In this document: positions 2,185-64,000 of the stretch, piece by piece
Layout: each line of letters starts with the position of its first letter
How positions within the stretch are numbered: the stretch's first letter is position 1
Assembly (NCBI GenBank): GCA_017478185.1
Contig: JAFVEA010000009.1
Coordinates: 5,264-69,263 of the forward strand
Length of the DNA: 64,000 bases
Source: Clostridia bacterium
GTDB taxonomy: Bacteria; Bacillota; Clostridia; Christensenellales; UBA1242
Direction of reading: 5' to 3'
Made by a program: the position numbers and the translations under genes
Notes under the pieces: generated by a model
The model's input: the letters and a program-made list of their open reading frames with translations, nothing else
What the model was told of the DNA's origin: nothing
The model's database searches: none

Positions 2185-2598
2185 ATGGAAAAAACAGAAA
2201 AAGTTAAAAAAGTTAAAAAAGTTAAAAAAACATCAAAAGCCAAAAGCGCAACAAAAAAGAAAACTTTAAAAGAAATTAAAGAACAAAGAGCAAAAGAAGC
2301 AATTGAAGCCTTTAAAGCACAAAAAGAAACAATTGGAACAGAAGAAGAGCGAAAAGAAATTGTTAACCGCCTAAAAAGAATTATTGGTTCTATGAACGGC
2401 GTTAAAAAAATGATTGAAGATGGCTATCCTTGTGACCAAATTTTAATTCAATTTTCTGCAATAGACAGAGCAACAAAAAGCTTGGCAAACTATGTTGTTT
2501 TAAAGCATATGACCAATTATGTTGTTGATGAAATCAAAAACGGAAACATTGAACAACCACTAAAAAATGTTGTTGATTATTTTAAACGCTTTGAATAA
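2185..2598 (+). CDS. CsoR/RcnR/FrmR-family (DUF156) metal/stress-sensing transcriptional repressor with a Lys-rich N-terminal extension
   Basis: RLKRIIGSMNGVKKMIEDGYPCDQILIQFSAIDRATKSLANYVVLKH matches the family helix 1-2 core with the conserved Cys and His. ATG 2185 follows GGGGGTGG. Confidence 0.8.
   Translation: MEKTEKVKKVKKVKKTSKAKSATKKKTLKEIKEQRAKEAIEAFKAQKETIGTEEERKEIVNRLKRIIGSMNGVKKMIEDGYPCDQILIQFSAIDRATKSLANYVVLKHMTNYVVDEIKNGNIEQPLKNVVDYFKRFE
2203..2229 (+). repeat. In-frame 9-bp x3 tandem repeat (GTTAAAAAA) encoding VKKVKKVKK
   Basis: Three exact copies read directly from the sequence. Confidence 0.95.
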
Positions 2599-2736
2599 TA
2601 ATCTTTTTGCTTATTAAAAAAGAAAAAATCAGTTAAAAACACACAAAATGTGGAAAAGTGGATATCTTTTAAAAGATTGATATAAAAAGCAAAAGAACAA
2701 ATTTAAGTTACAAAAATTTTAAAAGAAGGTCAAAAA

Positions 2737-3441
2737 ATGATATTATTTTTAGCTAGCAAACTTGGTTATTATGACCCTGAAATTGGAAAGACAAAGCCAA
2801 CAAGATTAGATAACAGATTTGGCTTTTTAAACCATTTAAAAAACAGTTTGAAAGATACAAAAAAAGTTGTTTATGTTGCAAATGACCCACAAGACAAAGA
2901 AAACTCGTTGCGTGCAAATGCGTTTTTTGAAGCGCTTAAGTTAAGTGGATTAGAATTTGAAACAAAATGCATTTTAGACGGCCACACAAAAAGGCTTGCC
3001 AAAGAGATTTTGTCTGGCGCAAGTTTAATTTATCTTGCTGGCGGAAAAGTTCCAAAACAAATAGATTTTTTTAACGAGATTAAGTTAAAGAAAAATTTGG
3101 AGGGCTTTAACGGAGTTATTGTTGGTGAAAGCGCTGGAGCAATATGCCTTGCAGAAAATGTTTATAATTACCCAGAAACAGAAAGTGAGCTTTCTGACCC
3201 ATCATACTTAACAGGTTTGGGATTTACAAATATAAATATCATTCCGCACTTTAACTTAAAAAACGGAAATGATTATGCTGAAGAAAAACTAAACATTATG
3301 CAAATATACAAAGAAAATAGTTATAGATTTTGCTTTTATTGTTTGCCCAACTTTTCTTTCATAAAACAAGAAAATGATAAAATTGAACTTTTTGGCCCAG
3401 TTTATGAAATGCAAAACAAAAATATTAAAAAAATAAATTAA
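2737..3441 (+). CDS. Peptidase S51 (dipeptidase E-like) / type-1 glutamine amidotransferase-like protein
   Basis: LIYLAGGKVPKQIDFF and VIVGESAGAICLAE (GxSAG nucleophile elbow) are typical of the S51 family. Confidence 0.65.
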   Translation: MILFLASKLGYYDPEIGKTKPTRLDNRFGFLNHLKNSLKDTKKVVYVANDPQDKENSLRANAFFEALKLSGLEFETKCILDGHTKRLAKEILSGASLIYLAGGKVPKQIDFFNEIKLKKNLEGFNGVIVGESAGAICLAENVYNYPETESELSDPSYLTGLGFTNINIIPHFNLKNGNDYAEEKLNIMQIYKENSYRFCFYCLPNFSFIKQENDKIELFGPVYEMQNKNIKKIN

Positions 3442-33054: not shown

Positions 33055-33335
33055 AGATTGCCACAGCCATAAAGGGCTTTAGAGTGCCTTGAGGCGAAAG
33101 CCGAAAGCTTGGCGCAGTATCAAGCAGTTGAGATTGCCACGCAAGAGTTAACCTTGCTCGCAATGCCTTGAGGCGAAAGCCGAAAGCTTGGCGCTGCACT
33201 ACTTGCTTTGAACCTCTTTTTAAAGCGCCAAACATAAAGAAGTGTTATTCTGAAGCAAAAGAAGTTATTCCCCACCTGTCATTCTAAGCGTAGTGCCAAA
33301 GGCACGAAGCGTGAGAATCTCTTGCTCGCAATAAT
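33054..33335. repeat. GC-rich modular hairpin repeat cluster, copy B (three modules)
   Basis: GAGATTGCCAC occurs at 33054 and 33130. An exact 30-mer, GCCTTGAGGCGAAAGCCGAAAGCTTGGCGC, occurs at 33086-33115 and 33165-33194. A GTCATTCTAAGCG-TAGTGCCAAAGGCAC-GAAGCGTGAGAATCTC module starts near 33277. Confidence 0.9.
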
Positions 33336-35528: not shown

Positions 35529-35573
35529 ACGTCAGCCACCTTGGAGCAAGGTTTAGCCTTGCGTGGCAGTTGC
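35529..35573. repeat. GC-rich hairpin repeat, degenerate inverted copy D
   Basis: The reverse complement GCAACTGCCACGCAAGGCTAAACCTTGCTCCAAGGTGG aligns with GAGATTGCCACGCAAGAGTTAACCTTGCTCGCAATGCC of copy B. Confidence 0.6.
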
Positions 35574-35694
35574 TATTTTTTATGTTTCATACAATTCATA
35601 ACACCACCCATAAGTAAAAAACGCACAAAATTTTTTTGTGCATCTTTTAAAAATTTTAGATATAACATTTTTTAGTTTCAAACATTGTTAAAAA

Positions 35695-35883
35695 TTATGG
35701 GGTTCTAAGTCTTCCAGATTTGTTTTCCTTTGCTTTATCTTTTGGTTGATAAAAAGTTTTCTTTTTAAACTTTTTATACTTAGACAACACATCATCACCT
35801 AATCTTTCTCCTAAGTTATCAACAACCTTTTCATCTTTTGGCTCACATGGGCAATTTGTGTTATTATTGTTTTCTTCAAACAT
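35695..35883 (-). CDS. Small hypothetical protein (62 aa)
   Basis: AGGAG lies 6 nt before ATG 35883, and a terminator hairpin lies downstream at 35616-35648. No recognisable motif. Confidence 0.4.
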   Translation of the reverse strand: MFEENNNNTNCPCEPKDEKVVDNLGERLGDDVLSKYKKFKKKTFYQPKDKAKENKSGRLRTP

Positions 35884-36058
35884 ATTTTTCTCCTTTTTGT
35901 TTTAAATAACGCAAATATGATTATACATTAAACAACAAAAGTTGTCAATACAAAGTGTGTAATATCTCAAATTTGTTTAATATTTTTTGTCTAAAAAAGT
36001 AGATTTTTTAAAAAAGCATAAAAAGAATAAAAATTTATTTAAACAAATGGTTTTTTTA

Positions 36059-59378: not shown

Positions 59379-61127
59379 TTAATCTCTTATTTTATTTTCT
59401 ATTTCGTTTTTAGCAATTTTTATAAATTCATCAAGTTTAACTGCTCCCATATCGCCAACTTTGCGCTTTCTGATTGCAACAGTTTGTTCGTTCATTTCTT
59501 TTTCTCCAATAATCAAGCAATATGGAACTTTTTGAGCAGTTGCTTCTCTTATTTTCTTTCCGATTGTTTCATTTCTTAAATCAATGTCTGCTCTAATTCC
59601 GTTATCTTTTAATTTTTGAAGCACCATTTTGGCATAATCATTGCATTTATCAATAATAGGCAAAACATAAACTTGTTTTGGACTAAGCCACATTGGAAGA
59701 AGACCTTTATATTCTTCTATTAAAAATGCGATGAACCTATCAATTGAACCAAACACCGCTCTGTGGATAACAACAGGAGTGTGTTTTTCATTGTCTTCAC
59801 CAACATATTCTAGACCAAACTTTTCTGGAAGTTGATAATCTAATTGGCAAGTTGAAAGCGTGATTTCATGACCCAAAGCGCTATAAACTTGAACATCAAT
59901 TTTTGGACCATAAAAGGCTGCTTCGCCTTTTGCTTCACAAAATTCCGCACCACTTTCTTTTAAAAGCTCCCTTAATTCATTTTCACTTTTATCCCAAAGT
60001 TCATCATTATCAAAATATTTATCTGAGCCTTTTTCTCTTAATGATAATCTTAAATAATATTTTTCAAATCCAAAATCTTTGTAAACATCCAAAATTAGTT
60101 TTAAAACTTCGCCAACCACTTCTTTTATTTGGTCTGGACGGCAGAAAATGTGTGAGTCGTTTTGATAGAAGTTTCTAACTCTCTCTATACCTAAGAGTGT
60201 TCCGCTATCTTCAAACCTAAACACATTTCCAATTTCAGCAATTCTTAAAGGCAAATCCTTATAAGAATGCAAATCATTTTTAAACATCATCATGTGATGA
60301 GGGCAGTTCATAGGACGCAAAACAAATTCTTCGTTGTCCATTTTCATTGGTGGGAACATATCATCTTTATAGTGTGCCCAGTGCCCTGAAGTTTTGTATA
60401 GGTTGCTTGTTCCAATGCAAGGAGTTAACACATGTTTATAGCCATATGAAAGCTCTTTGTCCACAATATAATCGCATAAAGTTCTTCTTAAAATAAATCC
60501 GTTTGGAAGCCACATTGGAAGCCCTTTTCCAACAAGGTCAGAAAACATAAAAATTCCAAGCTCTTTTCCAAGCTTTCTGTGGTCACGCTCTTGTGCCTCT
60601 TGCAAAAACTTTTTGTGCTCTTTTAAATCTTGTTTATTTTCAAAACCAAAACAATAAATTCGTTGAAGCATTTTGTTCTTTTCGTTTCCTCTCCAATAAG
60701 CCCCTGCAACTTTGTCTATTTCAAAAGAAAAGTTTAACAAAAATTTTGTGTTTTCAACATGAGGTCCACGGCACAAATCAAAAAAGTCGTCACCAGTGTA
60801 ATAAATTGTTACAACCTCATCATCTTTTAAGCCGTTTAAAATTTCGCATTTATATTCGTTGTCTTTAAATATTTTTAATGCTTCTTTTTTGCTGACCTCC
60901 ACACGCCTGAAATCTTCTTGCCTTTTTAAAGTCTCTTTCATTTTGTTTTCAATTTTTTCAAAATCGTTAGGAGTTATTGGCACTTCGCAGTCAACATCAT
61001 AATAAAATCCAGTGTCTATTGCTGGCCCTATTGTGAGCTTGAGTTTATCTCCATAAATTTCTTTTAATGCTTTTGCCAAAATGTGTGCCATACTGTGTCT
61101 GAACATTTCTAATTTTTCTTTTTCCAT
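59379..61127 (-). CDS. thrS: Threonine--tRNA ligase (lacks the N-terminal TGS domain)
   Basis: 582 aa starting at the editing/second-additional domain (FRHSMAHILAKAL). Class II motifs (FRFEDSG..GIERVRNF; GFEKYYLRLS) and an anticodon-binding C-terminus. Confidence 0.95.
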   Translation of the reverse strand: MEKEKLEMFRHSMAHILAKALKEIYGDKLKLTIGPAIDTGFYYDVDCEVPITPNDFEKIENKMKETLKRQEDFRRVEVSKKEALKIFKDNEYKCEILNGLKDDEVVTIYYTGDDFFDLCRGPHVENTKFLLNFSFEIDKVAGAYWRGNEKNKMLQRIYCFGFENKQDLKEHKKFLQEAQERDHRKLGKELGIFMFSDLVGKGLPMWLPNGFILRRTLCDYIVDKELSYGYKHVLTPCIGTSNLYKTSGHWAHYKDDMFPPMKMDNEEFVLRPMNCPHHMMMFKNDLHSYKDLPLRIAEIGNVFRFEDSGTLLGIERVRNFYQNDSHIFCRPDQIKEVVGEVLKLILDVYKDFGFEKYYLRLSLREKGSDKYFDNDELWDKSENELRELLKESGAEFCEAKGEAAFYGPKIDVQVYSALGHEITLSTCQLDYQLPEKFGLEYVGEDNEKHTPVVIHRAVFGSIDRFIAFLIEEYKGLLPMWLSPKQVYVLPIIDKCNDYAKMVLQKLKDNGIRADIDLRNETIGKKIREATAQKVPYCLIIGEKEMNEQTVAIRKRKVGDMGAVKLDEFIKIAKNEIENKIRD

Positions 61128-61171
61128 AATTTTTCTCCTTTTAATTTTTTTGAACTTTTTCATATAAAAAC

Positions 61172-61396
61172 AAAAAAGTCCTTTTGCTTTGCTAAAAACA
61201 AAACATAAGGACGAGAATATATTTTTACCCGCGGTTCCACCTTATTTGCTATTTTTTAATAGCCACTTAATTTCACTTTAACAATAGTGATTATCGCATA
61301 GAAACAAAGTGGTTTCACATTATTTGCTCCTTGGGTGAATCTCAGCTGCGCACCCTCTCTGTGAATTGCACAAATACGCTACTTGTCTTTATCTTT
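61172..61396 (-). promoter_or_regulatory. T-box leader riboswitch (Thr; specifier ACC)
   Basis: On the minus strand: stem I AGAGAGGGUGCG, candidate specifier ACC at 61336-61334, T-box core AAGGUGGAACCGCGGG (61228-61243), and the terminator GTCCTT/AAGGAC (61178-61212) plus a U run, directly upstream of thrS. Confidence 0.85.
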
Positions 61397-61472
61397 ACTA
61401 TGATTATAAAAAGTTTAACATAGATTTTGCGATTTGTCAACTATAAAGAATAATAAAACAAAGTGCAAAAAT

Positions 61473-61502
61473 AAAAAAATGCAGAAAATTTCTGCATTTT
61501 TT
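61473..61502. terminator. Bidirectional intrinsic terminator, 29/30 identical to 63766-63795
   Basis: AAAAAAA-TGCAGAAA-A-TTTCTGCA-TTTTTT. Confidence 0.8.
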
Positions 61503-61534
61503 GTGATTTTTGTGTTTAAAATAGTGATTTTTAA

Positions 61535-63310
61535 TTATTCTTCAACTTTTATAATCTTAAAGCCACCACTAACATCATCTTGATTAGCGTATACTCTAAC
61601 ATATAAATAAGTATCATCAGAAACAGTTATACTACTCCAATTTGTTGAGTTTACTTCTTGTGCTGTTCCATTTGCATCATAATAAAATACTCTAACAGTT
61701 GCAACGCTTCCGCCCCCATAGAAATTATCATTAACACTAAAACTATATGTAGCACCTTGCTCAATCTCAAATCTTAAATACACTTTCTCATCGCTATTCA
61801 TATTTTCAACATGATTGGTTGCATCATATTCTTTTGATTGTGATGAGTAAGTATCACCAACAAAATACGCACTGCCAGGAACCACGCCTTTTCCTGTTGA
61901 CTCATTCACTTCATCCAAAATTCTAAATTTACCATCATTAAATGCTGAAGTTGCGGTGATTACAACATAATAATATCCGTCAAATGATGCTATGTGATCT
62001 TGATATGTACCATCAAATGTAGCTGATTGGAAAACCCCATTGTTATCAAGATAATAAAATGCAAAATCTCCAGCTTGAAGAGGTGTTTTATACTCTCTCT
62101 TTAATTTATAATCGCTTAGGTAAGCAAAACGATAATATGCCTTTTGTCCTACCCCTAAAGATAATGTTTGTTCTTCACCAAAGTTTATGGTTGTTCCAAC
62201 ATATTCTCCGCAAATCTCACAAAAACCATAGAAATCTGGATCTGTGTGTTCTGCGTGTTCTTTTAAAGTTATTGTTTCGGAATTGTCAATTTCATTATAG
62301 TTTGATTGAATAATTTTAACCATATATTGTTTGTTTTCTGTAGTATCAAAAGTTTGCCTATCCCCACCAGACTCATATAGTGTCCCATTAACAACTTCTT
62401 CCCATTCGTTAGATGTGTTCTTAGCATATATATAATACGAATATTCATTATCTTGCCCTAAAGAACAATCAAGATAATAAGTTTTGTCTGCTTCTAAATT
62501 TACTCTAAAATAATCTGTGTAGTATCCAGTTTGAGAACTTGTTGTAACCTCTGTGTATGGCGAAAAGTCACTATTAACTTGGATAAGGTCCCCGTATTCA
62601 ATATAATATTCTGGGCTTGTAACATTGTTTAAAAGTTTATAGTTTGTTGAATCTTCTCCAGTTAAACTTGCTGAATATGTGAATGTTTGCCCTGCCTCTA
62701 AGTTGTTGCCATTTAAAGTTTTTGTAACTGAGCAATTATCTCCAGCAATAATTCCACTTGTTTCTAGTGTCGGAACTCTTGGCGTTCCAAACACATAAGC
62801 AAATGTCGTGTTTTGTTGCCAAGCAAGAGTAACATCTTTTTGAGCAATTGTGTAACCTATTGTTCCAGTAAATTCTTCATTGTTGTTTTCTACTGCATTG
62901 ATGTGTATTTTTGCTTCATATTCTCCTGCATTTGTTGGAGCTATTTGAGAAAATTCATCTTCACTACCTTTTGCTCTATACCCAACAACACTAACTGAAC
63001 TTGGGCTTATTCCTTGTGCATTTTCTCCAAGAAGATTAAATGCTCCTTCAACATCAATTGGTTGAGCCTCACCGTTGTATGTTGCTGGCAAGGTTACTCC
63101 GTCCAAAAGGTCAGCGATGTCTTGAGCTGTTATAATTATTGTGTGTGAGTCTTGATTTTGAGTTTGTTCACTTTGATTGTTTTCTGGTTGCTCTGCTGGT
63201 TGCTCTGCTGGGTCCTTCCCACAAGCAGAAAAACCTAATGCAAAAAGTCCTATTGTGATGATTGATAACATAATCACAAAAAACTTTTTTAAACTTTTTG
63301 TTAAATTCAT
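61535..63310 (-). CDS. Lipoprotein (591 aa), unknown function
   Basis: Signal peptide with the lipobox GFSAC and a Gln/Pro/Glu linker. A segment resembling MBG/Ig-like repeats (TLAWQQNTTFAYVFGTPRVPT...GDNCSVT) is a weak call. Confidence 0.75.
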   Translation of the reverse strand: MNLTKSLKKFFVIMLSIITIGLFALGFSACGKDPAEQPAEQPENNQSEQTQNQDSHTIIITAQDIADLLDGVTLPATYNGEAQPIDVEGAFNLLGENAQGISPSSVSVVGYRAKGSEDEFSQIAPTNAGEYEAKIHINAVENNNEEFTGTIGYTIAQKDVTLAWQQNTTFAYVFGTPRVPTLETSGIIAGDNCSVTKTLNGNNLEAGQTFTYSASLTGEDSTNYKLLNNVTSPEYYIEYGDLIQVNSDFSPYTEVTTSSQTGYYTDYFRVNLEADKTYYLDCSLGQDNEYSYYIYAKNTSNEWEEVVNGTLYESGGDRQTFDTTENKQYMVKIIQSNYNEIDNSETITLKEHAEHTDPDFYGFCEICGEYVGTTINFGEEQTLSLGVGQKAYYRFAYLSDYKLKREYKTPLQAGDFAFYYLDNNGVFQSATFDGTYQDHIASFDGYYYVVITATSAFNDGKFRILDEVNESTGKGVVPGSAYFVGDTYSSQSKEYDATNHVENMNSDEKVYLRFEIEQGATYSFSVNDNFYGGGSVATVRVFYYDANGTAQEVNSTNWSSITVSDDTYLYVRVYANQDDVSGGFKIIKVEE

Positions 63311-63346
63311 TTTTTCTTCTCCTTTTAAATTTTTTTAAAATAAAAA

Positions 63347-63393
63347 CAACGCCAAAAATCAAAGATTTAAAAAATCCTCAACTTTTGGCGTTG
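63347..63393 (-). terminator. Hairpin plus U tract between the leader ORF and the lipoprotein gene (candidate attenuator)
   Basis: On the minus strand, CAACGCCAAAA (63393-63383) pairs with UUUUGGCGUUG (63357-63347). An inner GGAUUU/AAAUCU pairing is possible. UUUUUAUUUU follows. Confidence 0.6.
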
Positions 63394-63512
63394 ATTTTAT
63401 TAAAGTTATTTTTGAAAAACAAAAAATTGGCAGAGTTATAGCTGCTTGTCCGCTTGTCTGCTTGTCTGCTTGTCTGCTTGTCTGCTAAAATTGTGGCAAA
63501 ATTAAAGCTCAT
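63378..63512 (-). CDS. Candidate 44-codon leader ORF containing the octanucleotide repeat
   Basis: AGGAG lies 7 nt before ATG 63512. Product MSFNFATILADKQTSRQADKRTSSYNSANFLFFKNNFNKINAKS. The stop UGA (63380-63378) sits 2 nt past the hairpin 5' arm. Below the ORF-track length cutoff. Confidence 0.35.
   Translation of the reverse strand: MSFNFATILADKQTSRQADKRTSSYNSANFLFFKNNFNKINAKS
63444..63486. repeat. Octanucleotide microsatellite (GCTTGTCT)x5 plus a partial unit
   Basis: GCTTGTCC, then four exact GCTTGTCT units, then GCT. Read directly from the sequence. Confidence 0.95.
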
Positions 63513-63544
63513 TTGTCAACTCCTTTTTTGTTTTCCTAGAACTT

Positions 63545-63573
63545 ATTATATTAATTTAAAAAAAATAAGTCAA
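63545..63573 (-). promoter_or_regulatory. Near-consensus sigma-A promoter driving the leader ORF and lipoprotein gene
   Basis: On the minus strand, TTGACT (63573-63568), 17-nt spacer, TATAAT (63550-63545). Confidence 0.7.
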
Positions 63574-63639
63574 CAATTTAAACAACATTTTAGAAAATGT
63601 AAATTTTTTATTTTCAATAATTTTTAATGTTATTATTTT

Positions 63640-63734
63640 GAGATTCTCACGGTCGTGCTTTCAGCACTCCCTCAGAATGCCTTTCGGCTATCGCCTCAAG
63701 GCATTGCGAAGCCCTTTAGGGCTGTGGCAATCTC
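63640..63734. repeat. GC-rich modular hairpin repeat, inverted mosaic copy C
   Basis: The reverse complement GAGATTGCCACAGCCCTAAAGGGCTTCGCAATGCCTTGAGGCGATAGCCGAAAGGCATTCTGAGGGAGTGCTGAAAGCACGACCGTGAGAATCTC combines the three module types of copy B. Confidence 0.9.
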
Positions 63735-63765
63735 ATCTGTTTAAGACTTAAAGAAGTGAAAAAAC

Positions 63766-63795
63766 AAAAAAATGCAGAAAATTTTTGCATTTTTT
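63766..63795. terminator. Intrinsic terminator after nadD, 29/30 identical to 61473-61502
   Basis: AAAAAAA-TGCAGAAA-A-TTTTTGCA-TTTTTT. Confidence 0.75.
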
Positions 63796-63855
63796 ACAAC
63801 TTTTTAATGTTTTTTTGGTTAAAATTATAATAAAATTAAAAATTACACCAATTTT

Positions 63856-64000
63856 TTATTTCAAATATTTTTCAAAAAATGGCTTAGCGCTTGGGGCGAT
63901 ATAATCAAAATACTTTTTTATATCACCTCGAATTTTTGTGGAAGAGATATTTATTTCTTCTCTGTTTTTATCTTGCAAAACATATTCACTTTCTGGAAAA
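63856..64000 (-). CDS. nadD: Nicotinate-nucleotide adenylyltransferase, C-terminal fragment (continues beyond the window)
   Basis: My own translation of the minus strand gives FPESEYVLQDKNREEINISSTKIRGDIKKYFDYIAPSAKPFFEKYLK*. The ISSTxIR motif is diagnostic of NadD. Too short to appear in the ORF track. Confidence 0.7.
   Translation of the reverse strand, partial: FPESEYVLQDKNREEINISSTKIRGDIKKYFDYIAPSAKPFFEKYLK

Follow-up and report, generated by a model that had tools for sequence, protein, structure and literature searches.

On the minus strand of a Clostridia contig, a sigma-70-type promoter, a leader ORF built on an octanucleotide repeat, a very stable terminator hairpin and a predicted lipoprotein gene follow one another, with all parts in the right order and at the right spacing for a switch that couples repeat copy number to transcription. 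We lean, if only modestly, towards reading this locus as a phase-variable leader-peptide attenuator of the type known from pil1 and pil3 of Streptococcus gallolyticus. A preliminary description of the same DNA had proposed a phase-variable, translation-coupled attenuator; that proposal fits the sequence and matches the proven pil1/pil3 system, but the accompanying view that such a combination was undescribed is wrong, as Danne et al. demonstrated it for pil1 and pil3 in 2014 (PMC3894217).

The DNA read belongs to the Clostridia bacterium MAG GCA_017478185.1 (contig JAFVEA010000009.1). The window is the whole 64,000-nt stretch that was analysed, and the locus lies on its minus strand.

Anatomy of the leader

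The elements of the leader, in the direction of transcription, are the following.

63545..63573, minus strand: promoter P1 (consensus scan), TTGACT 63573-63568, 17-nt spacer, TATAAT 63550-63545
63520..63524, minus strand: Shine-Dalgarno sequence AGGAG of the leader ORF, 7 nt before ATG 63512
63490..63519, minus strand: second promoter-like site P2, TTGACA-18-(TGc)CACAAT, 10/12, with TG before the second hexamer
63378..63512, minus strand: leader ORF (ORF list), 44 codons plus UGA (MSFNFATILADKQTSRQADKRTSSYNSANFLFFKNNFNKINAKS)
63442..63486, minus strand: octanucleotide tract, four perfect units GCAGACAA at 63485-63454, GCGGACAA at 63453-63446, then partial GCAG; unique flanks TTGCCACAATTTTA and GCGGACAAGCAGCTATAAC
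63436..63438, minus strand: UAA of the predicted OFF/low frame
63337..63401, minus strand: attenuator, a predicted intrinsic terminator (terminator scan and folding), with 5' arm 63393-63372, 3-nt loop 63371-63369, 3' arm 63368-63347, A/U stem extension pairing 63401-63395 with 63345-63339, and U-tract UUUUUAUUUU at 63346-63337

P1 agrees with the sigma-70-type consensus at 11 of 12 positions, includes a T8 run in its spacer and is the top promoter-like match across 61000-64000; window-wide, 22 sites, P1 included, reach 11/12 or better. Transcription would start near 63538. The end of the -10 hexamer lies 33 nt from the leader ATG (18-91 nt at the other intergenic strong promoters here), whereas the lipoprotein ATG is 235 nt away from P1. 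As a start signal AGGAG-N5-9-ATG is fairly specific in this genome: of 24 such sites in the window, 16 open ORFs of at least 100 aa. The TTGACT-17-TATAAT promoter at 63573-63545, the AGGAG placed 7 nt before ATG 63512 and the 44-codon ORF that opens there had all been named in the preliminary description, and all three are there as described.

Two further elements were noted near the promoter. Candidate P2 overlaps the leader start codon, and transcripts from it would begin inside the tract, without the leader RBS. A GC-rich element upstream of P1 is a dispersed repeat; for both reasons, its position and its dispersed nature, it was ruled out as a part of the leader.

The leader ORF ends in UGA, which is a stop codon in this genome, and holds no run of any single regulatory codon. 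Its 44-aa product has no Pfam match, and the exact product is not on record as a called gene in the assembly collection. The tract inside it was delimited by TRF as a repeat of period 8 with 5.6 copies and 94% matches (63442-63486). An octamer tract had rightly been placed in the leader, but not as five tandem copies: four perfect GCAGACAA units are followed by one imperfect unit, GCGGACAA, which carries a substitution, so that perfect periodicity spans 35 nt. The 16-mer of the tract occurs four times in the window against 0.06 expected, and the tract is the window's sole SSR with a unit of 2-9 nt and at least four copies. Because its sense strand contains no T, all three reading frames through it are automatically open. 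A published survey of SSRs set its criterion at three units or more (PMC7383803); the four perfect octamers exceed this, whereas proven long-unit SSRs have 12-22 units. Slippage is likely to be much rarer here, with four perfect units, than at pil1 with its 22.

Terminator hairpin and reading frames

The hairpin is a continuous 22-bp stem of -25.5 kcal/mol, or -30.3 kcal/mol with the A-U extension, and its fold has a z-score of about -9.5 to -9.6, with none of 200 shuffles folding as well. It is far more stable than the terminators that end the flanking genes (-6.8 and -12.2 kcal/mol). The hairpin and the U-tract UUUUUAUUUU of the preliminary description are thus both real, but the stem, which had been given as 11 bp, is in fact 22 bp long and can be extended to 63401/63339. 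Against Rfam covariance models the 64-kb window yielded nothing at the gathering threshold, and over 63000-64000 there were chance-level matches only (E >= 0.15), which merely align the hairpin.

A simulation of frames links copy number to the position of the leader stop codon. With 3, 6 or 9 perfect units translation ends at UAA 63438-63436; with 4 or 7, the present state being 4, at UGA 63380-63378 inside the 5' arm; and with 5 or 8, at UGA 63361-63359 inside the 3' arm. The earlier claim that one unit fewer, the present number and one unit more give three different stops is borne out, with two corrections of position. The early UAA precedes the 22-bp stem by 42-45 nt and the extended stem by 34 nt. 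It had been placed about 55 nt before the hairpin. The n+1 stop, UGA 63361-63359, had been placed just before the 3' arm and in fact lies within it.

Folding of the leader found no competing RNA structure or antiterminator that depends on copy number. At each copy number tested the terminator is part of the MFE structure, the remaining fold does not change from 2 to 8 units, and the tract stays unpaired in the predicted RNA, ending about 50 nt before the hairpin. Since the hairpin is present at every copy number and nothing competes with it, copy number can act only via the reading frame. It should be noted that two frames open from tract to hairpin are statistically unremarkable (p about 0.14-0.28): among dinucleotide shuffles 14% show this pattern, and among intergenic windows of 52 nt 28% do. 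Chance falls far short of explaining the tract, the hairpin or the promoter, each taken singly.

The lipoprotein gene and its neighbours

Downstream of the hairpin and around the transcription unit lie the following features.

63319-63323, minus strand: Shine-Dalgarno sequence AGGAG of the lipoprotein gene, 8 nt before its ATG
61535..63310, minus strand: predicted lipoprotein gene (ORF list), 591 aa, ATG 63310
61474..61502, minus strand: palindromic terminator ending the lipoprotein transcription unit, -12.2 kcal/mol
63767..63795, minus strand: upstream palindromic terminator after the preceding gene, -6.8 kcal/mol

The ribosome-binding site and ATG 63310 of a 591-aa lipoprotein, reported earlier as following the terminator, were confirmed. 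The product begins with a lipoprotein signal peptide (...GLFALGFSAC/GKD) and is identical to the NCBI entry 'MAG: hypothetical protein IJ837_02600 [Clostridia bacterium]'. It has no Pfam, NCBIfam or PDB sequence matches, and its AlphaFold2 model, with a mean pLDDT of 45.7, is unusable. Single-sequence and profile searches of 5.8 billion proteins returned only two homologs, P0002 and P0003, both remote, and JGI metagenomes and IMG/VR returned none; the SAC of the signal peptide is conserved in all three homologs. The SSR thus appears to accompany a product predicted to be surface-exposed.

Between the terminator and the lipoprotein ATG (63347-63310) the consensus scan found no promoter of at least 9/12, the best relaxed matches reaching 8/12 with 15- or 19-nt spacers. 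The two flanking terminators are contained in a 51-nt direct repeat with copies at 61461-61511 and 63754-63804, and the one at 63767..63795 would insulate P1 from upstream transcription. The neighbours of the gene are thrS and a partial ORF without a Pfam match, the C-terminus of which we take to resemble NadD. A T-box leader precedes thrS (89.5 bits, E = 2.7e-20), so terminator-based attenuation is in use next door.

Proposed switch

From this anatomy we infer translation of the leader, ribosome-dependent read-through and switching by copy number. Transcription would begin at P1, and ribosomes would load at the AGGAG and ATG 63512 and translate the leader through the T-free tract towards the very stable terminator that separates it from a lipoprotein gene without a promoter of its own. 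In two of the frames, the present four-unit frame included, the leader stop falls within the hairpin; the ribosome's footprint would then lie over one arm of the stem as RNA polymerase passes through the terminator, the hairpin would be blocked and the lipoprotein gene transcribed (ON). With 3, 6 or 9 units translation would stop 42-45 nt upstream, the hairpin could form and most transcripts would terminate (OFF/low). By slipped-strand events that add or remove one 8-nt unit, the locus would move between these states. Attenuation by a translating ribosome is disfavoured in those Bacillota in which RNA polymerase runs ahead of the ribosome, although the pil1 system works in Streptococcus and Lactococcus all the same.

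Alternative readings

A free-standing small gene would present the same picture of a stop codon overlapping a terminator, and such overlap is common at gene ends. P1, the 44-aa ORF and the terminator may accordingly form a small gene or transcript of their own, with a neutral tract and with the lipoprotein expressed by leakage through the terminator or from an unrecognised type of promoter. Stand-alone small ORFs with a promoter, an RBS and a terminator do exist here, for example a 62-aa ORF from 35883; the tract is short and imperfect, and the pattern of open frames is not significant. This reading nevertheless leaves an intact 591-codon ORF with a good RBS but no sigma-70-type promoter, and it does not account for a hairpin far stronger than ordinary terminators here, for a layout that matches a proven regulatory module element by element, or for the SSR in the promoter spacer of the relative P0003. 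We regard it as unlikely, though deserving of serious consideration.

Could the leader instead be an ordinary ribosome-mediated attenuator that senses stalling or translation rate, as set by an antibiotic or amino-acid supply, in which the repeat is incidental? A leader ORF followed by a terminator is common to stall-sensing attenuators of Bacillota, VmlR being the example cited in PMC11955535, and the tract has only four perfect units. Yet there is no alternative antiterminator hairpin to select and no run of one regulatory codon in the leader, the target is an ORFan surface lipoprotein gene and not a biosynthetic or resistance gene, and the sole SSR of at least four copies in 64 kb falls exactly within the leader ORF. 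Stall sensing is therefore, in our judgement, improbable.

Regularly spaced CAG/AAG triplets that are predicted to be largely unpaired would suit an RNA platform for an oligomeric antiterminator or terminator protein. TRAP and HutP bind arrays of NAG triplets, with 5-nt spacing for TRAP and 7-nt spacing for HutP, whereas the period here is 8 nt. About 50 nt separate the end of the tract from the hairpin, the tract overlaps neither the hairpin nor any competing structure, no candidate regulator gene is adjacent (thrS and the partial ORF being the neighbours), and a perfect RBS and ATG would be left unaccounted for. A TRAP- or HutP-like platform is very hard to credit on these grounds.

An SSR might also act through the structure or processing of the 5'-UTR, with expression graded by repeat count as at hmw. 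The tract is indeed transcribed within a long 5' leader, and post-transcriptional effects of a 5'-UTR SSR are documented (PMC12721329), but no stretch of this leader is complementary to the tract, which stays unpaired, and the leader otherwise folds identically from 2 to 8 units, which makes such a mechanism here slightly more doubtful still than a protein platform. That the tract is an assembly artefact is the least credible reading of all: repeats are prone to mis-assembly and the Logan contigs break there, but the same tract end, GCGGACAA included, is shared by the MAG and two runs assembled independently.

Relatives and copy-number data

The homolog P0003 (L004) is 47% identical to the lipoprotein and has a nearly identical signal peptide. 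Its promoter, TTGACA-N8-G10-TAGAAT, holds a G10 run within an 18-nt spacer, and this tract suggests that the lipoprotein gene family attracts SSRs at its control region. The preliminary description had recommended looking in relatives for a similar arrangement of repeat, leader and hairpin; a homologous leader was found in no other genome.

The locus itself is carried by one MAG and two Logan contigs only. Both contigs have the same tract sequence, including the GCGGACAA variant, and both break inside the tract. As a sign of copy-number heterogeneity these breaks are ambiguous, since periodic 31-mers common to other organisms explain them equally well: (GCAGACAA)n with n of at least 4 occurs also in further MAGs from animal guts, among them an Alistipes from water-buffalo colon, and these shared periodic k-mers undermine the breaks as evidence. 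A scan of GTDB genomes for (GCAGACAA)x3 gave 69 stretches scattered over unrelated phyla and contexts; the genome of the window itself was absent, and none of the 69 had the flanking sequence or the context of the locus. An exact search of JGI metagenomes for the right flank of the tract gave 0 matches.

Wider implications

No new principle is proposed here, because the principle was published in 2014 (PMC3894217). If the reading is correct, no case before this locus would have lain outside streptococci, used an 8-nt unit or controlled a lipoprotein. It is a tentative thought, which we hold with somewhat less than even confidence, that SSR leader-peptide attenuators are not peculiar to the pili of S. 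gallolyticus but form a convergent class of switches in gut and rumen Bacillota, and that in sister lineages a single lipoprotein family has come under differing SSR devices. The G10 spacer of L004 and the leader octamer described here would then show that contingency mechanisms are replaced rapidly at a single gene.

Confirmation would take the mechanism beyond the pair of pilus operons in a single Streptococcus species where it is known, to uncultured Clostridia, to a new repeat unit and to another class of surface protein. It would also provide a searchable, genome-wide signature for phase-variable genes that standard SSR screens miss, as these cover only promoters and the regulated gene's own coding region. 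Such a signature would combine an RBS and ATG with a tandem repeat that is T-free on the sense strand and has a unit not divisible by 3, followed by one early-stop frame, two frames that stop inside a strong terminator, and a surface-protein gene without a promoter of its own.

Comparison with known systems

Phase variation by homopolymers in promoter spacers is familiar from Neisseria opc/porA and Bordetella fim, and the G10 spacer upstream of P0003 in L004 is of this kind. Like the present locus, these systems place an SSR where a gene for a surface protein is controlled. In contrast, the SSR described here lies downstream of the -10 hexamer, in a leader predicted to be translated; its copy number leaves promoter geometry unchanged, and any effect must therefore go through the reading frame.

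The pyrBI leader, an attenuator without an SSR, contains an ORF that runs through its attenuator. As proposed for our locus, in trp and pyrBI formation of an intrinsic terminator depends on a ribosome that translates the leader. What is sensed there is charged tRNA or nucleotide supply, whereas a heritable change of frame is proposed here, and trp uses alternative hairpins where this leader has a single one. The E. coli trp leader, taken up in PMC3894217, likewise represents ribosome-mediated attenuation without an SSR.

At hmw, too, an SSR with a unit of 7-8 nt separates the promoter from an adhesin gene and forms part of the leader transcript. The H. influenzae 5'-UTR repeat is an ATCTTTC heptamer (PMC12721329), and that of biogroup aegyptius is the octamer GCATCATC (PMC3309571). 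The hmw repeats are untranslated, and expression is graded via promoter distance and a hairpin processed by RNase III; the tract described here, by contrast, is predicted to be unpaired and sits inside an ORF with an RBS.

The closest counterpart is the pair of switches reported by Danne, Dubrac, Trieu-Cuot and Dramsi (2014, PLoS Pathog 10:e1003860; PMC3894217). In S. gallolyticus pil1 and pil3, GCAGA repeats lie in a leader ORF ahead of a premature terminator, and one frame gives low and two give high expression. At pil1, with 22 GCAGA repeats, the low-state stop lies 39 bp before a terminator of -18.7 kcal/mol, out-of-frame variants with the stop within or after the hairpin are in the high state, and the behaviour of the delta-term, ATG* and 3-STOP mutants bears the mechanism out (PMC3894217). 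pil3 uses the same mechanism with a hairpin of -28.2 kcal/mol (PMC3894217). Expression of pil1 is low when the stop lies at least 28 nt before the terminator, a distance exceeded by the 42-45 nt found here; with 22 units it switches at 5e-3 per cell per generation, and the system functions in both Streptococcus and Lactococcus (PMC3894217).

The likeness extends over the whole layout, from a promoter and an RBS/ATG through an SSR-bearing leader ORF and a terminator with a U-run to the RBS/ATG of a gene for a surface structure. In both cases the repeat unit is not a multiple of 3, is T-free on the sense strand and starts with GCAGA. The early stop lies 39 bp (pil1), 33 bp (pil3) or 42-45 nt (here) before the hairpin, the other two frames end within or adjoining it, hairpins of -18.7 and -28.2 kcal/mol compare with -25.5 to -30.3 kcal/mol, and the hosts are gut or rumen Bacillota. 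The differences are equally clear. The unit has 5 nt there and 8 nt here, 13-22 units stand against four perfect and one imperfect, a sortase-pilus operon is replaced by a single ORFan lipoprotein gene, and the host here is an uncultured Clostridia MAG. Strain UCN34 is in the low frame, whereas the reference state here is predicted to be ON, and the mechanism that was proven there by experiment is read here from sequence. Because GCAGA and GCAGACAA are different units and the genes that follow have nothing in common by descent, the relation that we claim is one of analogy and not of homology: the locus is probably a second example of the pil1/pil3-type switch, and not a new mechanism.

Organization of the leader locus

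Read along the minus strand, the locus contains a promoter (P1), a leader ORF with an octanucleotide tract, a predicted intrinsic terminator and a lipoprotein gene.

Features of the leader locus
63573-63545, minus: promoter P1, TTGACT-17-TATAAT; score 11/12, the top promoter-like match within 61000-64000
63524-63520, minus: leader Shine-Dalgarno sequence AGGAG, 7-nt gap to ATG 63512
ATG 63512 to UGA 63380-63378, minus: leader ORF, 44 codons
63442-63486, minus: period-8 array; 5.6 copies, 94% matches (Tandem Repeats Finder)
63485-63454, minus: four perfect GCAGACAA units of the array; after them one imperfect GCGGACAA and a partial GCAG
63393-63372 paired with 63368-63347, minus: terminator hairpin, unbroken 22-bp stem, 3-nt loop; then UUUUUAUUUU
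8 nt 5' of the lipoprotein ATG, minus: ribosome-binding site AGGAG
63310-61535, minus: lipoprotein ORF, 591 aa; signal peptide end LGFSAC

The elements listed in the preliminary description are thereby confirmed: P1, the leader start with its 44-codon ORF, and the downstream gene with its Shine-Dalgarno sequence stand as described, and the array and the hairpin with its trailing UUUUUAUUUU are present, except that the fifth of the five claimed octamers is imperfect and that the stem, given as 11 bp, has 22 bp. In folding, this stem alone reaches -25.5 kcal/mol and flanking A/U pairs bring -30.3 kcal/mol (z ~ -9.5), compared with only -6.8 and -12.2 kcal/mol for the two ordinary terminators beside the locus. 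The octamer tract is unique within the 64-kb window (4 matches versus 0.06 expected), where it is the sole simple sequence repeat (SSR) with a unit of 2-9 nt and at least four copies; a published SSR survey admitted octanucleotide tracts from at least three units (PMC7383803). Tract, hairpin and promoter are each well beyond chance.

The T8 run in the P1 spacer (63551-63567, minus) may be a second, though weak, site of slippage. Another promoter-like site (TTGACA-18-TGcCACAAT, 10/12, 63490-63519, minus) overlaps the leader start codon, and transcripts from it would begin in the tract, without the leader ribosome-binding site. Elsewhere in the window, an intergenic tandem repeat at 1923-2044 (unit of about 31-32 nt, 3.9 copies, TTTCAATAATTTTTTATTTTAAAAAAATTCA) sits between the divergent typA (30-1928, minus) and a CsoR/RcnR-like repressor gene (2170-2598, plus), which itself carries AAAAAGTTA three times in its 5' coding region (2198-2224).

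Copy number and reading frame

The leader was rebuilt in silico with 0-9 perfect units, and each version was translated.

Leader stop codon by number of perfect units (minus strand)
3, 6, 9 units: UAA 63438-63436, 42-45 nt ahead of the 22-bp stem
4 (present number), 7 units: UGA 63380-63378, within the 5' arm
5, 8 units: UGA 63361-63359, within the 3' arm

The frame arithmetic proposed earlier is right, with small corrections to the stop distances: the early stop lies 42-45 nt from the stem, and the stop after gain of one unit, placed before the 3' arm, falls inside it. UGA is a genuine stop codon in this genome: translated with table 11, the window has a coding content of 86% and long uninterrupted ORFs, and TGA closes 6 of 51 of them. 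The tract lacks T on the sense strand and is therefore open in every frame automatically, which we read as a design constraint because such a unit cannot make a stop in any frame. The 52-nt AT-rich spacer is open in two frames, a pattern matched by 14% of dinucleotide shuffles and by 28% of intergenic 52-nt windows of the same genome, and is thus not beyond chance.

Folding of the leader at 2-8 units gave an identical structure throughout, with the terminator intact and the tract mostly unpaired, so that copy number can act only via the leader frame or a unit-counting factor. In these folds nothing competed for an arm of the stem, including folds from which the 3' arm was omitted.

Start signals, apparent promoter dependence and alternative explanations

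Start signals carry more weight than the frame pattern. In the window, 16 of the 24 AGGAG-N5-9-ATG sites open ORFs of at least 100 aa, and intergenic promoters scoring at least 11/12 mostly have a start codon 18-91 nt away; the distance from P1 is 33 nt to the leader ATG but 235 nt to the lipoprotein ATG. In the stretch from the terminator to the lipoprotein ATG, a consensus scan gave no promoter scoring 9/12 or more (best 8/12 in a relaxed scan, with spacers of 15 or 19 nt), and the lipoprotein gene for this reason seems to depend on P1-initiated transcripts obliged to pass the hairpin.

A phase-variable leader-peptide attenuator is the best available explanation of this arrangement; it is somewhat probable and rests on a proven precedent. 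A main doubt is that the tract is short and slightly degenerate. Unlikely, though the strongest of the alternatives, is an independent small gene that has a terminator of its own and a repeat of neutral character, which would leave an intact lipoprotein gene with a good ribosome-binding site promoterless. For comparison with such a gene, a stand-alone 62-aa ORF at 35695-35883 (minus) has a perfect promoter (TTGACA-17-TATAAT, -10 end at 35920), a good ribosome-binding site and a terminator downstream, and appears to be a small protein gene. An attenuator that senses ribosome stalling, with the repeat incidental, is less plausible still, as the leader offers neither an alternative hairpin nor a regulatory codon run. 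Binding of a TRAP- or HutP-like protein to repeated triplets is very improbable: tract and hairpin do not overlap, the 8-nt period mismatches the spacings known for such proteins, and the leader ribosome-binding site would be left unexplained. An hmw-like RNA-structure effect of the tract is, if anything, slightly harder still to credit, the tract being unpaired at every length folded. Octanucleotide SSRs as such have a precedent: in H. influenzae biogroup aegyptius, GCATCATC stands in 12-15 copies ahead of hmwA (PMC3309571). An assembly artefact can be practically dismissed, three assemblies being concordant.

Genomic surroundings

Two near-identical palindromic terminators bound the lipoprotein unit, each inside one copy of a direct repeat; the pair of copies encloses a GC-rich element, P1, the leader, the attenuator and the lipoprotein gene.

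Repeats around the lipoprotein unit
63754-63804 and 61461-61511: 51-nt direct repeat, 86% identical, spacing 2293 nt
63734-63640, minus: GC-rich element, 95 nt, upstream of P1; GAGATTGCCAC...GCAATGCCTTGAGGCGAAAGCCGAAAG...CGTGAGAATCTC
33055-33107, 33131-33186, 33290-33335, plus: partial copies of the GC-rich element (dispersed repeat)

This layout suggests that the cassette with the ORFan lipoprotein gene either inserted at a terminator lying upstream of thrS and past the preceding gene, or duplicated that terminator. The GC-rich element (about 55% GC versus 30% in the genome) folds at -53 kcal/mol (z = -5.9) with several predicted GNRA-like loops and has no match in Rfam; the same element occurs upstream of a homologous lipoprotein gene in another organism (L004 1-35, the contig starting inside the copy). 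Possible identities are a REP/MITE-like repeat and a small RNA not yet described. A GC-rich segment near 35540-35575 (minus) is possibly related to it.

Downstream of the lipoprotein gene, thrS is preceded by a T-box leader (61204-61404, minus; 89.5 bits, E = 2.7e-20), on which the default Rfam window scan was silent because the score lies just below the gathering score of 93. The organism therefore employs terminator-based attenuation.

Relatives of the lipoprotein

The lipoprotein has an identical record, 'MAG: hypothetical protein IJ837_02600 [Clostridia bacterium]'. Among 5.8 billion proteins it has only two homologs, P0002 (49% identity) and P0003 (47%), each over part of the length; none was found in JGI metagenomes or IMG/VR, nor any match in Pfam, NCBIfam or PDB sequences, and its AlphaFold2 model (mean pLDDT 45.7) is unusable.

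P0003, whose signal peptide is nearly identical to that of the window lipoprotein, has an SSR of another kind: its promoter (L004 137-166; ENA ERZ27256846 k141_1057561) reads TTGACA-aaacacaa-GGGGGGGGGG-TAGAAT, GGGGGGGGGG being a G10 within the 18-nt spacer. A homopolymer in the promoter spacer is a classical layout of phase variation. At the P0002 locus (L003), the promoter is plain and lacks an SSR. An SSR is thus part of the control region in two of the three members of the family, each with a device of its own.

Upstream of P0002 (L003 749-782; ENA ERZ28653690 scaffold_64160), a good ribosome-binding site stands before ATG AAG TAA, which shares its frame with the called start located 18 nt downstream; with the TAA removed, the N-terminus would have the usual form of a lipoprotein signal peptide (MK?KLLMFVLALCL...SAC). 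A nonsense mutation may have switched the gene off, or the stop may be a sequencing error.

The octamer in other genomes

Two Logan contigs carrying the locus (SRR12529328, L001 1-40; SRR12529323, L002 1-40) start inside the tract, both at the first 31-mer holding the imperfect GCGGACAA unit, so that the assembly graph branches at the last fully periodic 31-mer. They confirm that the tract end and the imperfect unit are real. The branch could reflect longer alleles at this locus or, equally, other organisms in the sample; a GTDB genome scan found (GCAGACAA)n with n of at least 4 in further MAGs from animal guts, among them a water-buffalo colon Alistipes and Prevotella, and the breaks were therefore set aside as evidence on copy number.

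The uncultured bacterium Ja1_bin-3702 carries a multi-copy element (L008, L018, L019, L025, L045, L047, L057, L059) in which a TTGACT-17-TATAAT promoter-like site is directly followed by (CTTGTCTG)n and then by conserved atgaccatacctaataaatcc...; n ranges from 4.2 to 14.8 among copies, so the window's octamer varies widely in copy number there, and contigs often terminate in the tract. Many loci per genome with GCAGACAA-type arrays occur in Alistipes sp. RGIG7479 (L021, L026, L033, L051, L064, L072) and Prevotella BRZ_R__bin45 (L006, L056, L068, L073), with related octamers such as GCGGACAA and GAGACAAA; in most Alistipes loci the arrays flank a conserved core, gagggagcgaactgcatttgggaagcgtgttcgtattt, whose opposite side bears inverted arrays, and these loci look like a family of repeat-bordered elements. 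In the MAG 'Cyanobacteria bacterium UBA9971' (L011, minus strand, ~2437-3130), a 230-aa ORF whose N-terminus resembles a type IV prepilin (MRRQADKQTNPLEHENISKSRISKGFTLAEVLLVITIIGVIA...) contains (GCAGACAA)x3 from 4 nt past its ATG, which looks like a candidate translational phase-variation site with the same octamer.

Comparison with known systems

The combination of repeat and attenuator, which the preliminary description was not aware of having been described, surfaced in a full-text search: the mechanism was published for the S. gallolyticus pilus operon pil1 by Danne, Dubrac, Trieu-Cuot and Dramsi (PLoS Pathog 2014, PMC3894217), and the principle is not a new one. Novelty lies in the setting, namely an uncultured Clostridia MAG, an 8-nt unit and an ORFan lipoprotein, together with a sister gene bearing a promoter-spacer G-tract in place of the leader octamer; our literature search found no description of an SSR leader attenuator outside S. 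gallolyticus.

In pil1, a leader ORF that has a ribosome-binding site contains 22 GCAGA repeats and is followed by a -18.7 kcal/mol stem-loop terminator and the pilus genes (PMC3894217). At 22+3n repeats, the leader stop lies 39 bp ahead of the hairpin and the majority of transcripts terminate, while out-of-frame gain or loss yields longer leaders with a stop within or after the hairpin, on which the ribosome blocks terminator formation and pilus transcription is high (PMC3894217). Deletion of a stem arm locks expression high, mutation of the ribosome-binding site or ATG locks it low, and heterogeneity disappears once every frame contains a stop; expression is low in isolates with a leader stop 28 nt or more ahead of the terminator (PMC3894217). 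The module is functional in Lactococcus lactis, switching occurs at ~5e-3 per cell per generation, and pil3, with 13 repeats and a -28.2 kcal/mol hairpin, behaves in the same way (PMC3894217). The window octamer and GCAGA are both T-free and both start GCAGA, and the locus matches pil1 and pil3 element for element in its layout and in its predicted logic of one low and two high frames.
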